Below, one piece after another: positions 42,001-60,000 of a DNA stretch of 64,000 nucleotides. The position numbers are program-made. How positions within the stretch are numbered: position 1 is the stretch's first letter; each line of letters opens with the position of its first letter. Origin of the DNA: Candidatus Aenigmatarchaeota archaeon (GTDB lineage Archaea > Aenigmatarchaeota > Aenigmatarchaeia > Aenigmatarchaeales > Aenigmatarchaeaceae). Where the stretch lies: contig JAZDKZ010000004.1 in assembly GCA_043802485.1 (NCBI GenBank), positions 24,157 through 88,156 of the forward strand, given 5' to 3'.

Positions 42001-45000
42001 AAGTTGCTTTGACACCACCTTGTTGACATGTGAGATGTAGACTTGCCTGCCCCTTTCAATGCGTTCGACGAACTCTGGATGCTCGGAAGCGTACTCGCTT
42101 ATCTCCTGCCCCCTCAGCTCTCCGAGAGTTAACCGTATCTCCTCTTCTGTAGGATTCATGTTCTCAACCTCTCCTTATTAAGAGGCAAAATCTTTTAAAG
42201 AAATGTTTATGGCGCTGGCTTTTTTGATGATGAATTATTAAATACCAGTCTCTGCATATGGATAGCATGTGCAAAGCAAACATTCTATACGCCATTGCGC
42301 TGGCATTGGGAGTTGCAGCGGTCGTGATGAACTTCACAGGCATTGCAGGAAACTATGACACTGCACCCCTGCTGGGAATCGCGGTCGTGTGCCTGGCGCT
42401 CGCATGCATGGACAAATCCTGCTGCAAACCCGTGGCGAAGAAGAGAAGATAGTCTAATCTTTTTGTTTTTTTTCTTGTTCTTACTTTTAGTAATGTATTT
42501 AAAGTTTACTACCTTAAAGTGAATATAGAGTGATATGATGATTTCCAAAGGCGTTATTTTAGGGATATTCATGGTAGCTTTAATGGTCGCTATCATCTAC
42601 AGCCTGGCAGCATACGCCATGAAGAATGACTCCCAATACAATTCCTACACAAAGACCATAAAGTCCTGCGACGGCCATGGCAACTGCATGCTGAGGGACC
42701 TGCTGGTCCAGTGCCTGGGCGACAGCGTGATAGACATCACCCTGATAGGGGAGTCTCCAGACGTGCCCGAGTCCTTCGAGGGCGGAAACATGTTCAGCTG
42801 GTGCAACTGACATTTTAAATTCTGGGTTTTCCATATTGTTAGTATGAAAAACAGGTATCTCTACTCTAGAATGATGTACAGCATGGCCTACGTTTGTGCG
42901 GTAGCCATTCTTGTCTTCGCATACATGGGGATACCCAACGACCTGCTGATAGCTTTCGCCATAGCGTGCCTTGTGACAGGCGGCTACCTTTCTGCGGACA
43001 GGGACAAGAGAGACGATATACCCAAACACAAGGTGAAGCTGACCACGCTGGACGAGGAAATGAAAGAAGCCAGGCATCTGGCTGCTGTGGAGAAGTAGGA
43101 TAAAATAAAGAAATATGCCGAATTGTTCGACAAGGGGAAGAGGCATTATGATAGAGTTTAAATCCTGGTTTTCTATATTGATATTTTTATTATAACACAG
43201 TAGTGACTGCTTTAAGTAGTTAGAGCGCCATATACTATAAAGAGATACTTGATGTTTTAAGAAATTATTTCTTATTCTGAACTTTGAAGTATTTGGAATT
43301 AAGGGTGATTAAAATGGCTAATTTATTCGTGGAAAGGCAGGCTGCGCTGGAAAGGCACAATACAGTGACAGAAGATGAACTGATCAGAGGGAGATTTGGT
43401 TAGGATGAAATTTTATTCGGATGCGTATTTCGGCATGCTGAGGACGACAGCCGATGGGTCGAAACCCCACACAGTAGCGTGCGCTTAGACTTAATGCGAT
43501 AAGACGGAGATTTTATGTTAAAAAATGATGAAGTTATAATAAAAAAGAAGAAAGAAATTTCTTACATGTCACAGGAAGACAGAGAGATAGCAGCAAGTGA
43601 TCCTGGTCCTTATTTACTTCGTTCGTAGGGTTTTGATATGCCAACGCCACCTGTCTGGAGAAAAAGAAGCAAGCGAAGTTATTTCAAGAGAGATGAATAT
43701 TACTAGTTTTGGGATGGTTGATAATATGAAAGAATATAATAGGTATGAAAAAGCAAGGATGGTCGGGGCCAGGGCTTTGCAGCTATCAAGAGGGGCACCG
43801 TCTGTGATAGATACTAAACTAAAGGACCCCAAAGACATAGCAGAGCTGGAGTTTGACCAGGGCGTAATACCGATAGAAGTCAAAAGGCGTGTCAAAGCAA
43901 AATAAGGGCTAATATACAAAGAACCAGGAGGAAAGCGCCTTGCTCTCTCCCTTGCGGCACTCGCCCTTTAGCTTTTTTCTTTCCACACGTGTCAGCCGCT
44001 TTGCACTTCTTCTCATCATATATATATGATTTTCGCAGAAATAAAGGCGCTGTTTCTTTAGAACGTCTGATTTTTATTCTGATAATAATGCGATAACAAG
44101 CATATCTGTTTTGTAGGACTTGTGCCTGTACACGAAGGTTTCTTTGCCTCCTCTGGCAGGTCTATCTCTCTTTTGATATTCCACCTCATTGTGATACCTA
44201 AGCTTTTTGAGGGATACGGCGCTTGTTGTGACGCCTAGTGCAACATCTATATCATTCGCTGTAAAGTACATGTTCTTGTCTTTCCTATACTGCTGCTTCA
44301 AGAACTTTAGAACACTCCTCTGGCCCATTCTTTAATCTAAGAAGACAAGCTTTAAATCCTAAACGGAAATTGTGTTTAAATCTTTTTGGAATTTAATCTT
44401 TATTGATATTATGCAAATAAATGTGGAAAAGGTAATCAAAAGAAGGATGGAGAATTGGGAATATACGTTAGGGTATGCTGAATGGGTTGTTGAAACTCAA
44501 AGAAATAAGAAAAACTATACTGAAAATGAAAGATCAACGGTTGGTGATATTTTTACGGCATTGTGTTATGCTAATGAAGTTGTATCAGACACTTCTGGAA
44601 ATTCTATTTATACGGTTATTATGGAAGATGCTGGTTTGGAGAAGAAATGCAAGAACGATTTTACAAGGTGTTGGGCAAGAGCTAAACAAGTCAGATTTGA
44701 TACACACGAGTTAATAGAAGAATTGTTTGAGAAACGTTAGAACCTTTATTTATTTAAGTGATTGTAAGATTTTAATAAAGAAACCATTGTAACCATTATC
44801 TGATATGAGTGGTGTTATGATAAATTATGGTATTATAGAAATAGCAAAAAATGTAGTCATGTTTAGAAGAGATGCGATTAATGCTGGTGAAGTGACTAAA
44901 GCCAATGGCTATGGGTCCCAGATTGATAGTATATGCGAGGAAAACCAGGACGTCGATGGCAAGAGCCTCTGTGTAGACAAAAGCAATGACATTGTATACT

Positions 45001-57000: not shown

Positions 57001-60000
57001 TCACGGACATGCACACTTTGAACCTATCGGAAGAGTATGAACTGGACCCGAAAGACGCGAACGAGGTGGAGATGTGACCATTAAGAAGAAGGTGAGGTTC
57101 ATAAGAAAACAGGTGCTGGACGAGATTTACAAGTACAAGGAAATCGAGAAGAGGAATCTGAAGGACGGATTAGCAAACAGAGGGTTCGGATGAACAGGAA
57201 AATGAAATTTCTAAGATATTTGGTAGAAAGGAGAGAGATGTTCGTTCCATTGGACAACATTCCTGGTGGGAACATAGAGACAGCGGAAGCTCTGCTGCGA
57301 GAGGGAATGATAGGAGTGGAGAGACTGGAGAAGTGTATTAATTGCGTGCTATTGATAAGGGGGCACGAACTCATAGAAAGCGCCAAGAAAAAAGAGAATT
57401 GATTTTACTTCTAACGTCAGACTTTTATTCACGATTATATAAAATTCTAGTATGGTCTCACTCACATTCTACGGCGGCGTTCGAGAAATTGTCTCAAGAA
57501 ATTAAATACTCAAAGCGAGGGCACCATCAAAGGTATCTCCGTCTGCTCCCTGTTCGCAAACTTTAGCAGAATAACTATCAGAACAATCTCCTTTCCTGGC
57601 CTCAGGCGTATCTCCGCGTTCTTTATGCTCTTCAGAAGCTTTTTGGTGATCCTTTTCTTGTAGAGCTTTCTGAGCATCTTCGAGACGTCCATTATCTCTA
57701 TGCCGACAATGTTGCCATCGAAAGAATAGTCTATCACAAAGTCGTCCATCTGCATGCTGTCTTTGACCTTCCCGTCCTTGTACAGGAACAGTATGTCGTT
57801 CTCATAGTCATAGTCTATCTTTGCTTCAGCCATTTTTCATACACCTTCCTTCTCCTTTTGTTCTGGATGTGCGCCGTTACAATATTTATTTTGTCCTTCT
57901 TTATTGATATTATTATCCTCATGTCGTATCTGGACGATTTCTGTAAAAGCATCAGGTATTTGTGGCCCTTTGGCTCAAGGCCCTGGTCCTCAATCAAGAT
58001 TATTGAATCAACGTCTTTTATAGCCTTTAATATCTCGCCTTCATCTATATTTCTTTTTTCCGCCTTGACGCGATAATGGCTGCTAAAATTTATGCTGCCC
58101 CTGGTTATCCTTCTGCTTATTTTCATTGCGTCCTTGTCGCTCAACACGTCCTTCATCAAAAGATATATGGTTTCCTGGAATTAAATTGCTGATTCACCCT
58201 TGGCGGTGAATTTTTATTGCAGTGTTATCAATTCTCTACTATGGTCTCGTTAACCTTCTACGGCGGCGTCAAGGAAATCGGGGGCAACAAGATATTACTA
58301 GAAGACGATGGAACCAAAATATTTCTAGATTTTGGCATGAACTTTTCACAGCACGCCAAGTTCTTCACTGAATACATGCCGCCCCGCAAGAACTCGTGCA
58401 TAACGGACATGATGTTCCTGGGCCTATTGCCCAACATCAAAGGATTATACCGCCGCGATTACTGCAAGCACCAGGGCGCGGACCATAAAGAAGAAAATTC
58501 CGTGGATGGCGTCCTGATATCACACGGCCACATCGACCACGTGGGCTATGTCCATTTCCTTAGGAAGGACATACCCGTCCATGTAAGCCATGAAACCAAG
58601 GCGATAATGGAACTGTTTACCAGAACCGGAGCAGGCGGTTTCAGCGAGTTCTGCGACTTTAAACCGAGCTTTGAACTGATACCCGCAAAAACAGGCGGTA
58701 TGAAGAGGCGCGATGCCCGCGACGGAACGGAGAAGAGGGACGTCCGCACCTTCGAGTTCGGCAAAAAGTTCACCATAGGCAATCTGGAGATCGAACCCTA
58801 CCGGGTCGACCATTCCCTGCCCGGCGCGACCGGTTTCATAATCCACACCTCCGCCGGAGCCATAATCTATACAGGCGATCTGCGGTTCCACGGCCGCCAC
58901 AGGGACTGGAGCAACGCCTTTGTCTCGGCCTCGGCTGCGGCCGAGCCCGTGGCCATGATATCGGAAGGCACAAGGATCAAAAAGTCTGACAACAGGACCG
59001 AAGATTATGTCCAGAAGGAGAGCACCGACTGCATCAAAGGCAAAAAGGGCCTGGCCATAGCCAACTTCCCCATAAGGGACACTGAGCGATTATTGACCTT
59101 CTACCAAACAGCCAAGGCCAACCAGCGCAAGCTGGTCATAGAGTACCGGCAGGCCATCCTGCTGGACCTCCTGAAAAAGTGCGGCATTGACGGGCTGCCG
59201 GACTCGAAAGATCCGGAAATAAGGATATTCTACCCCAAAAAGAGCTGGGGTCTGATCGGCAGGAAGGACTTTGACCGGGAGCAGGTGGAAAGGGACTATA
59301 CGTCCTGGGAGAGGACGTACGCCTCGTCGGAGAACGTGATAGACGCCTGCGAGATAAGGGACCATCAGAACGGTTTTGTGATGTTCATGAACTATTTCCA
59401 GCTGAATAATTTGCTTGATTTGAAGCCTGTTTCGGGTAGTGTCCATATTCGAAGCATCTGTGAGCCTTTCTGCGAGGACATGGAGCTGGACCAGAAGCGC
59501 ATTAATAACTGGTTAAGGCTGTTCAAATTGTATCCTGAGAAAAAATTCCACTGCTCCGGGCATGCCACCGGTGACGCGATAGAGGGGATGATCAAAACGG
59601 TTTCGCCAAAGGCGGTGTTCCCCATACACACAGAGTATCCTGGGATTTTCCGGCGTTTCAACAAGTCAAGAATGGTTAAGTATGGGAAGTGCTACGAGAT
59701 TTAAATTTTATTATATTGAATGATTATTATGGACCAGAAAGTTACAGTTGAAGAATTGAAGAAACTTGTAGCAAAGTTTAGAGATGAACGTGAATGGGCA
59801 AAATATCACACTCCTAAGGATCTTGCTGTTTCTATTAGTGTTGAAGCAAACGAGTTGTTAGAACTTTTTCAATGGAAGACAAATGAAGAAGTGGAAGAAT
59901 TATTAAAGAAAAATGAAAAGTATCAAAAGGTCTTGGAAGAATTAGCCGATGTTATGATATACTGTTTGAATCTAGCAGATACAATAGGTGGCGACGTGTC

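Follow-up and report, generated by a model that had tools for sequence, protein, structure and literature searches.

Gene units shuffled at displaced starts of an RNase J-like gene in an Aenigmatarchaeota archaeon

How can a row of short gene units be assembled and reordered in a genome where no integrase is recognised? This question is raised by a stretch of 64,000 nt of a Candidatus Aenigmatarchaeota archaeon (hereafter the window; assembly GCA_043802485.1, contig JAZDKZ010000004.1). A survey of this genome (G000) had noticed a core element repeated on one strand among small orphan genes, and had proposed a cassette array filled by a site-specific recombinase.

Results

The repeat is the 5' end of a coding gene

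The window contains 12 exact matches to the core, all on the + strand between 45039 and 58268 (chance expectation 0.01; 12 matches were reached in 0 of 100 shuffles). Neighbouring copies are 406–3004 nt apart, so that the number and the spacing (0.4–3 kb) of the survey's finding hold. In the 769-kb genome, every 14-mer that occurs at least four times lies in the array, except for one four-copy pair on contig C6. The motif had been described as intergenic, which it is not: each of the 12 copies is the 5' end of a gene encoding an RNase J-like MBL-fold protein, from about codon 1 to 13 and often with its promoter. Copy 12 is the real start of this gene, which has one copy in G000 and whose product matches TIGR00649 under the cut-off. 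The ATG is retained in seven of the 11 others. Hence, eleven small gene blocks precede the MBL gene, and each closes with a spare copy of its start (Table 1).

The differences among copies are mostly synonymous (29 versus 10 non-synonymous, P=9e-11), which shows that the repeat is protein-coding in origin. In G000, codons 6–9 are uniform at the DNA level (47 of 48 third positions are the same), and the similarity 5' of the core is uncoupled from that 3' of it across the 12 copies (Mantel rho −0.46). The core is a gene fragment and no free-standing site, as it had been taken to be. Across genomes, the displaced fragments stop at differing points between about codon 10 and codon 23; these ends were read from translations, automatic end-mapping having overshot in several rows. 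Folding revealed neither an attC-like hairpin (mean z −0.03 to −0.31) nor a stem-loop terminator in the repeat, and the element matched no Rfam family. The attC core grammar was found in 0 of the 12 copies and in 0 of 34 sites of the promoter box described below. A degenerate thirteenth copy claimed at 47401 was rejected: it is coding DNA, in frame within the DUF2330 ORF (47264–48871), and encodes a different peptide.

Table 1. Features of the array and its surroundings, in window coordinates.
Feature	Position	Strand	Remark
Exo5/Cas4-like solo nuclease, candidate helper	33635..34276	-	kept in the region across the family
Weaker box	42814..42830	+	525-nt insert here in variant contigs of all three runs
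Polar promoter-box junction (profile match)	43157..43173	+	profile from relatives' junctions only
Displaced start 1	45027..45065	+	ATG retained; two amino-acid changes
Unit 1 cargo	45072..45796	-	AbiEii/DUF2204-like nucleotidyltransferase (45230–45796) and 53-aa ORF
Displaced start 2	45853..45908	+	promoter with ~21 nt and the ATG missing
Unit 2 cargo	45970..48871	+	422-aa protein without family; DUF2330 membrane protein
Displaced start 3	48874..48910	+	one of the 12 core copies
Unit 3 cargo	48946..50241		four small ORFs, one common to G012
Polar promoter-box junction (profile match)	49469..49485	+	profile from relatives' junctions only
Displaced start 4	50272..50312	+	codons 1–12 same as intact gene
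Unit 4 cargo	50315..51309	-	MNT nucleotidyltransferase and HEPN-like partner (HEPN call from pairing and weak PADLOC match)
Displaced start 5	51434..51471	+	promoter type common to 52682 and 58241
Units 5–7 cargo	51505..54288	+	five ORFs, none with confident family
Displaced start 6	52682..52720	+	promoter type as at 51434 and 58241
Displaced start 7	53089..53126	+	promoter box joined straight to codon 4
Displaced start 8	54329..54358	+	mutated ATG
Units 8–10 cargo	54397..57402		small ORFs; HAD-IB hydrolase (55629–56309, minus strand)
Displaced start 9	54931..54959	+	truncated to codon 4
Displaced start 10	56347..56385	+	promoter box at 56318 upstream
Displaced start 11	57452..57490	+	one of the 12 core copies
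Unit 11 cargo	57510..58156	-	DUF4258 and DUF2283 pair
Intact anchor gene	58241..59704	+	MBL-fold/beta-CASP RNase J-like hydrolase, 487 aa; Pfam Lactamase_B, Lactamase_B_2, RMMBL

Units are exchanged among relatives and co-occurring strains

The units of G000 span 0.4–3 kb and hold one to four genes each, on both strands and with their own promoters. The two toxin-antitoxin pairs of the survey's finding are present; its count is short, as the AbiEii/DUF2204-like gene of unit 1 and its 53-aa partner resemble a third such pair. This unit also occurs as a unit in G008, G019, L060, and L065. The extent that had been given, 44994 to 58314, needs correction at the left edge, where the shuffled zone runs to at least 42815.

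Displaced MBL starts are also found in G012 and in four of the nine family genomes with the MBL gene. No array accompanies the MBL homologues of other families. In the relatives, units of 0.2–2.7 kb are 93–98% identical and their order is permuted. Units are likewise shuffled among co-occurring strains, as read from joints on assembled metagenome contigs, of which those with sides under 30 nt are weak; the three runs are perhaps those behind the survey, or the source sample, and two contigs of 381 kb and 273 kb were read out to 10-kb flanks. One variant contig joins 45849 to 51394, such that the site of displaced start 2 meets a complete promoter of the same type, and another carries a full start at the site of displaced start 9. 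In G000, G008, and L065, units move with their right-hand promoter and start, and one unit retains its promoter type across different genera. Neighbouring starts in G019 differ at 13 of 60 nt, many of them synonymous, whereas the intact genes of G019 and L060 differ at 2 of 60. Over distant loci, 45 of 53 families have a single orientation and 44 of 179 gene pairs are swapped, which is weak evidence from loci that are themselves related. No RNA data set among the matches listed contained the array. The shuffling of units in relatives and strains, together with a core uniform at synonymous sites, bears out part of the proposal: the locus is an array of cassettes that are exchanged at a short junction defined by its sequence, with neither a hairpin nor IntI.

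A second, polar junction lies in the promoter

Many of the crossovers map to a further junction that the survey had missed, a box of ~16 nt that overlaps the TATA element. The MBL-codon junction is dominant in the genus of G000 and the box in other genera, and relatives mostly use the box. The two junction types are fused in displaced start 7. Box matches are 16-fold enriched and lie on the MBL strand in 69 of 70 cases; in relatives, 36 of 64 boxes are followed by an antisense gene. A profile trained on relatives' junctions has three matches in G000, where the plain pattern is not enriched (nine matches versus eight for the reversed control), so that specificity is obtained only with the trained profile. 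Among close relatives, a box lies within 20 nt of 25 of the 65 breakpoints, versus 3.5% at random (35 of 80 before the removal of 15 rows duplicated by the overlapping locus L095), and is absent within that distance at the other 40. Linkage to the left is complete up to box position +4 and linkage to the right from about +17, and it is mixed in the interval; these values come from 14 and 19 site pairs that are not independent of each other. The crossover window at the box is 16 nt or less, AT-rich, and includes mismatches. One joint shows 11 nt of microhomology.

No recombinase accompanies the array

Searches with PF00589, PF00239, PF07508, PF01548, PF01867, and PF01797 gave no match in G000; this assembly is 89% complete, so that a recombinase may be absent from the assembly only. 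RadA is present. Among the matches listed, PF00589 and PF00239 have none on the array contigs of relatives. Three weak tblastn matches were considered as integrase remnants in G000 and rejected, as inspection of the loci by eye revealed no integrase ORF. Capture by a site-specific recombinase, as the survey had it, is not supported in that form.

Discussion

A model for the growth and shuffling of the array

We are highly confident of the architecture: a polar array, anchored where the RNase J-like gene begins, that grows by accretion and whose units are shuffled. For the process, we infer the following order of events. A unit, with its one to four genes, would enter through crossing over within a short direct repeat. 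When entering at the MBL start, it would supply its own promoter and first codons and so restore the gene, the old start staying upstream as a scar, of which G000 would have eleven. Once scars and boxes are in place, units would be cut out between direct copies, probably in circular form, and could re-enter at any copy of the scar or box; re-entry at any direct copy would permute the order and keep the orientation. The joins would most likely be made by the short-homology repair or recombination of the host. We give this mechanism as a whole, including joins without a dedicated recombinase, an even chance. The variable fragment ends and the 11-nt microhomology would not be expected from a fixed cut site, whereas the narrow window at the box would fit a single crossover point.

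Several observations weigh against this mechanism. The crossover window is shorter than the 25–35 bp quoted for RecA (PMC6382021), and the strict polarity and uniform core resemble recognition by an enzyme. No box lies near 40 of the 65 breakpoints, and no circle was seen on the assembled contigs. As to uptake and resection, searches of G000 gave no DprA, ComEC, or NurA.

Enzymes acting in trans or from the region

The narrow window, the uniform core, and the polarity would also fit units that travel as passengers without an integrase (cis-mobilizable or CALIN-like), a visiting element supplying the tyrosine or serine recombinase in trans and having its att site at the MBL start or the box. 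There is a precedent in Dehalococcoides, for which PMC3146451 reports 15 ssrA islands without integration modules, and tyrosine recombinase matches occur elsewhere in 14 of the 20 other family genomes. Yet none of 24 recombinase loci has a copy of the MBL start within 1.5 kb, no viral contig searched for an attP carries the core, and every family match listed in a class-wide search is at an MBL or array locus; no cognate integrase-bearing element with the same site was found in these searches of incomplete genomes. Moreover, two unrelated junction sequences and variable ends would require several enzymes. We regard this explanation as unlikely.

We hold it improbable that the region itself encodes a dedicated capture system, hitherto undescribed, in which the Exo5/Cas4-like nuclease, possibly with a type IB topoisomerase (TopIB) or the MBL nuclease, would cut or resect at polar sites and join units. 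The Exo5-like gene is present in 14 of 21 family genomes, and in none of 21 from the rest of the order. It occurs in all six genomes with displaced starts, which are found in none of the four MBL genomes lacking it, but the genomes are kin and so not independent, and short contigs make up three of the four negatives. NurA has a match in one of 14 Exo5-positive genomes versus 16 of 28 others. Boxes lie antisense to the gene in 7/7 loci with at least three profile matches; against this, the profile finds nothing at eight Exo5 loci or contig stretches and a single match at another. The array is missing at MBL homologues of other families, and solo Cas4 is described as common in DPANN (PMC5704561). 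The best PDB match of the Exo5-like protein has an E-value of only 0.28. TopIB was rejected as the recombinase: it occurs in 4 of 42 genomes of the order and 23 of 274 of the class, searches of G012, G013, and G017 did not find it, 0 of 12 of its regions in other families show a polar array, and it is present without boxes in G011. We are equally doubtful of the boldest version, a DPANN integron analogue in which a regional non-integrase enzyme would open polar sites of 11–16 nt, either in the box next to the TATA element or in the MBL start, and excise and re-insert circles; the Exo5/Cas4-like nuclease would be its best candidate, for lineages where NurA was not found.

Target duplication and regulation

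Variable fragment length and the lack of mobile-element genes would suit insertion with a long, variable target duplication during break repair (PMC2853133), the resident promoter and start being duplicated rather than brought. Restriction-modification genes lie directly 3' in relatives, which is also in line with it. This process and homology-facilitated illegitimate recombination (PMC6382021) share with the array a recombinase-free gain of genes and variable joints of short homology. However, the repeats tabulated in PMC2853133 are near-identical (44–45 of 46 bp), and near-identical repeats copied from an empty site are not what we found. The neighbouring starts of G019 diverge far more than the intact genes of G019 and L060, and one unit keeps one promoter type in different genera. 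The array differs from both processes in that its repeats are donor alleles that have diverged, form a stack of eleven, and are used again; searches of G000 also found no competence genes. Target duplication thus seems to us very improbable. That the repeat is the shared operator or promoter of a regulon, as a TATA-like box after five cores (with an ATG 29–31 nt beyond it in four) had suggested, is scarcely credible and in effect refuted, since the repeat is coding in origin, precedes genes of either strand (as does the box in relatives), is absent elsewhere in the genome, and is followed by a TATA that is the cargo gene's own.

Comparison with known systems

In the best reading, the array works like ssrA islands, cis-mobilizable elements, and the PeSL cassettes of T4-type phages, and is not an integron. 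The ssrA islands of Dehalococcoides, 16 of which have the DsiB module (PMC3146451), likewise stand in tandem, with short pieces of one target gene, itself kept intact, delimiting the units, some of which have no integrase; in the array too, units are flanked by direct fragments of the restored gene. SXT/R391 occupies the 5' end of prfC, which encodes a protein, and forms tandems (PMC5812530). In contrast with both, the array has no integrase within it or in G000, its units are only 0.4–3 kb, its fragment ends vary, and it has a second junction outside a gene. In the phages RB49 and phi1, small orphan genes are shuffled by recombination at promoter-containing repeats, for which PMC2839356 identifies no recombinase, and breakpoints in the array also fall within promoter-containing repeats. 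The PeSL includes a stem-loop terminator and its circles were demonstrated, whereas the array has no hairpin and its circles are our proposal; the array differs further in its cellular host and in an anchor gene that is repeatedly re-started. The PeSL paper stated that there was then no evidence for such shuffling in cellular organisms. The array resembles integrons and CALINs, including archaeal ones, in its polar sites between short exchangeable units, its toxin-antitoxin and orphan cargo, and its shuffling between genomes (PMC9668308). It differs in lacking IntI and the attC hairpin and core grammar, and its cargo genes lie on either strand and have promoters of their own.

CALINs lack IntI, so that its absence alone does not exclude a CALIN. 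Overall, the array points to an integron-like gene-shuffling zone of a different build. It would be a route by which sub-megabase archaea without detectable integrase or IS gain and reorder toxin-antitoxin and orphan genes, the scars being a legible record of gene gain. With the junctions given at base level, a polar box of 16 nt and a coding core of 11 nt, the choice between host repair and an enzyme, which PeSL-type shuffling and integrase-less islands also pose, becomes directly testable.

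The repeated sequence is the start of an MBL/beta-CASP gene

The survey's finding was a run of 12 same-strand copies of a core sequence in this genome (G000), read at its boldest as an integron-like array. A pattern scan recovered all 12 as exact matches on the + strand, against a chance expectation of 0.01. A degenerate thirteenth copy, also reported, was rejected because the stretch encodes, in frame, part of a DUF2330 protein. The units, i.e., the small gene blocks between copies, are 406-3004 nt long, with a G+C content of 0.34 to 0.48; they carry the orphan genes, toxin-antitoxin pairs and HAD hydrolase already described, to which an AbiEii/DUF2204-like nucleotidyltransferase pair must be added. 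Public contigs, possibly from the source sample, span several copies with zero differences. The same layout is found again in other genomes, so the array is not an assembly artefact. Similar 34-nt sequences end two unrelated minus-strand ORFs just past a core, and two more two-copy intergenic repeats lie inside units.

In-frame translation of the copies yields the N-terminal residues encoded by the RNase J-like MBL/beta-CASP gene (MBL gene) that anchors the array; of the 11 copies upstream of it, 7 retain the ATG. Over codons 1-10, they differ from the intact start by 29 synonymous and 10 non-synonymous changes (pS 0.38, pN 0.04, P=9e-11), and have therefore evolved as working gene starts. Among G000 copies, 47/48 third positions of codons 6-9 are identical, while codons 2-5 and 10 are variable; in other genomes, 27 intact starts vary freely at codons 7-9. 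Hence, an 11-nt core is held uniform at the DNA level in G000. Similarity 5' of the core is uncoupled from similarity 3' of it (rho -0.46), which is what crossovers inside the core would give. A TATA-like box, probably the promoter of the cargo gene, follows five cores, and in four the next ATG lies 29-31 nt further on.

The MBL gene body (52% G+C) shares 78% identity with a Woesearchaeota homologue and 45% with that of the congener G013, though the starts of G000 and G013 are of the same type. It clusters with distant homologues, apart from G013, in a midpoint-rooted FastTree phylogeny, and may itself have been swapped at the array site. Around the MBL gene, a HAD hydrolase, rpo6 and an Exo5/Cas4-like nuclease are conserved, as is, more patchily, a type IB topoisomerase. 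Downstream of it lie variable defence modules: MazG-like and Schlafen-like helicase genes in G000, and restriction genes (DpnII, type III or Eco57I-like) in relatives.

Coordinates of features, in the window unless a locus is named
Feature	Position	Strand
Core copies, first to last	45039 to 58268	+
MBL gene	58241-59704	+
34-nt ORF ends (family D16)	45070-45103, 50313-50346
Repeats D9 and D13 (D13 copies are end points of two variant joints)	51819-51887, 55586-55626, 56406-56435
MazG-like and Schlafen-like helicase genes	59720-62012
Exo5/Cas4-like solo nuclease	33635-34276	-
Type IB topoisomerase, eukaryote-like	35014-36753	+
Box with 525-nt insert in variants	42815
Box-profile sites	43157, 49469, 53089	+
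TFIIB-repeat gene, unit nearest MBL gene in G013	L025:1765-2397
HEPN/MNT unit, orientation opposite to G000	L144, G240:C1:1481-2660
TATA-like motif related to the box, polar 6:0	L019, G015:C7:30000-47400	opposite to MBL gene
Five loose boxes, small ORFs, truncated integrase-like ORF; off MBL contig	L158:8200-10200 (G019:C6)	same for all boxes

Displaced starts in relatives

The MBL gene was found in 9 of the 20 other genomes of the family and in none of 21 genomes from the order's other families (E 1e-30). Displaced starts (fragments of the gene's start) lie upstream on the same strand in four of the nine (G008, G013, G017, G019), and also in G012, whose contig stops before any MBL gene. None was seen in the 17 kb read of G015 and G002, or in the 1.5-7 kb read of G003, G014 and G018. 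Among 52 metagenome loci, extra starts stand beside an intact gene at L048, L070, L060/L095, L065 and L079, and truncated starts stand alone at L047, L083, L087 and L092. Of 371 class genomes, one outside the family (G240, from another family) carries a pair of copies that enclose a HEPN/MNT unit, on a contig of 2.9 kb; a single intact start occurs in each of eight others, and one further match is unrelated. An extra copy is absent in five distant homologues. The fragments end at about codon 10-14 in G000's genus and 16-23 elsewhere.

Unit shuffling and a second junction type

Close relatives have units of 0.2-2.7 kb in common, at 93-98% identity, in permuted order and with different neighbours; upstream-array units keep their orientation in all three pairs aligned. 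A second junction type, a TATA-overlapping box of ~16 nt (pattern TTAAATYYTR), lies <=20 nt from 25 of 65 breakpoints (80 rows less 15 duplicated by L095) versus 3.5% at random. Among 311 box-like sites, 14 pairs are alike on the left flank only and 19 on the right only, with unbroken linkage up to +4 on the left side and from about +17 onward on the right; these pairs are not independent. Crossovers therefore fall within a window of <=16 nt.

A strict box pattern, derived from the tested loci themselves, has 69 of 70 matches on the MBL strand in 11 array regions, at 6.1 per 10 kb, compared with 0.39 per 10 kb across 387 kb of G019 DNA from elsewhere. In 36/64 cases the gene that follows is antisense. 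We ran two other checks. A blind motif finder returned the box as top or joint-top polar motif in 4/11 array-region loci; in G000 it picked out the core, and 5 background contigs gave nothing that exceeded 3 gaps. A profile trained solely on relatives found three sites in the whole of G000, all on the + strand and one fused to a core (53089), and was polar 4:0 in G012. The plain pattern shows no genome-wide enrichment in G000, and strict boxes are missing from G015 and G017.

Contigs of all three public runs (two studies) carry the 525-nt insert, with sides of 139-163 nt. Variant joints end at a core or box in 14 of the 20 listed, out of 25 (3.0 expected), most having sides of 22-44 nt, at which repeats draw short alignments; one is the same junction as in G012. 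Except for the insert, we treat them as supporting evidence only.

How the array may be built

A unit that lands at the MBL start would supply a replacement promoter and start, leaving the old start behind, and units could later leave and re-enter between direct copies; circles and event order are inferred, not seen. Tandem ssrA islands, including integrase-less members (PMC3146451), tandem SXT elements at the 5' end of prfC (PMC5812530) and PeSL shuffling (PMC2839356) work alike. The array does not fit the features that define integrons (PMC9668308) or insertion with long target duplication (PMC2853133); it lacks attC features. A search of open-access literature found no description of this locus.

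The joins may well be made by host short-homology joining, a reading on which we are evenly divided and which is favoured by fragment ends that vary, by a joint at 11 nt of microhomology, by the box-core fusion and by the failure to find a recombinase. G000 (89% complete) has RadA, and no match to tyrosine or serine recombinase, IS110, Y1 transposase or Cas1 families, nor DprA, ComEC or NurA. The narrow crossover window, uniform core and polarity would suit a recombinase supplied in trans, which we consider unlikely. Tyrosine recombinases match in 14/20 other family genomes, none on array contigs, start copies occur at 0/24 recombinase loci, and no core was found on viral contigs. A local nuclease system would account for the same three features and is quite improbable; many Exo5 loci lack boxes. 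Each of the 6 genomes that have displaced starts also has the Exo5/Cas4-like nuclease, which nearly excludes NurA across the order (1/14 genomes with an Exo5-like gene versus 16/28 others) and is possibly a replacement resection nuclease; kinship confounds both patterns. The topoisomerase, in 4/42 order and 23/274 class genomes and always near an Exo5-like gene within the family, failed as a general correlate of arrays.

The array is real and very probably a form of target-restoring accretion at the MBL gene, brought about by some joining activity.
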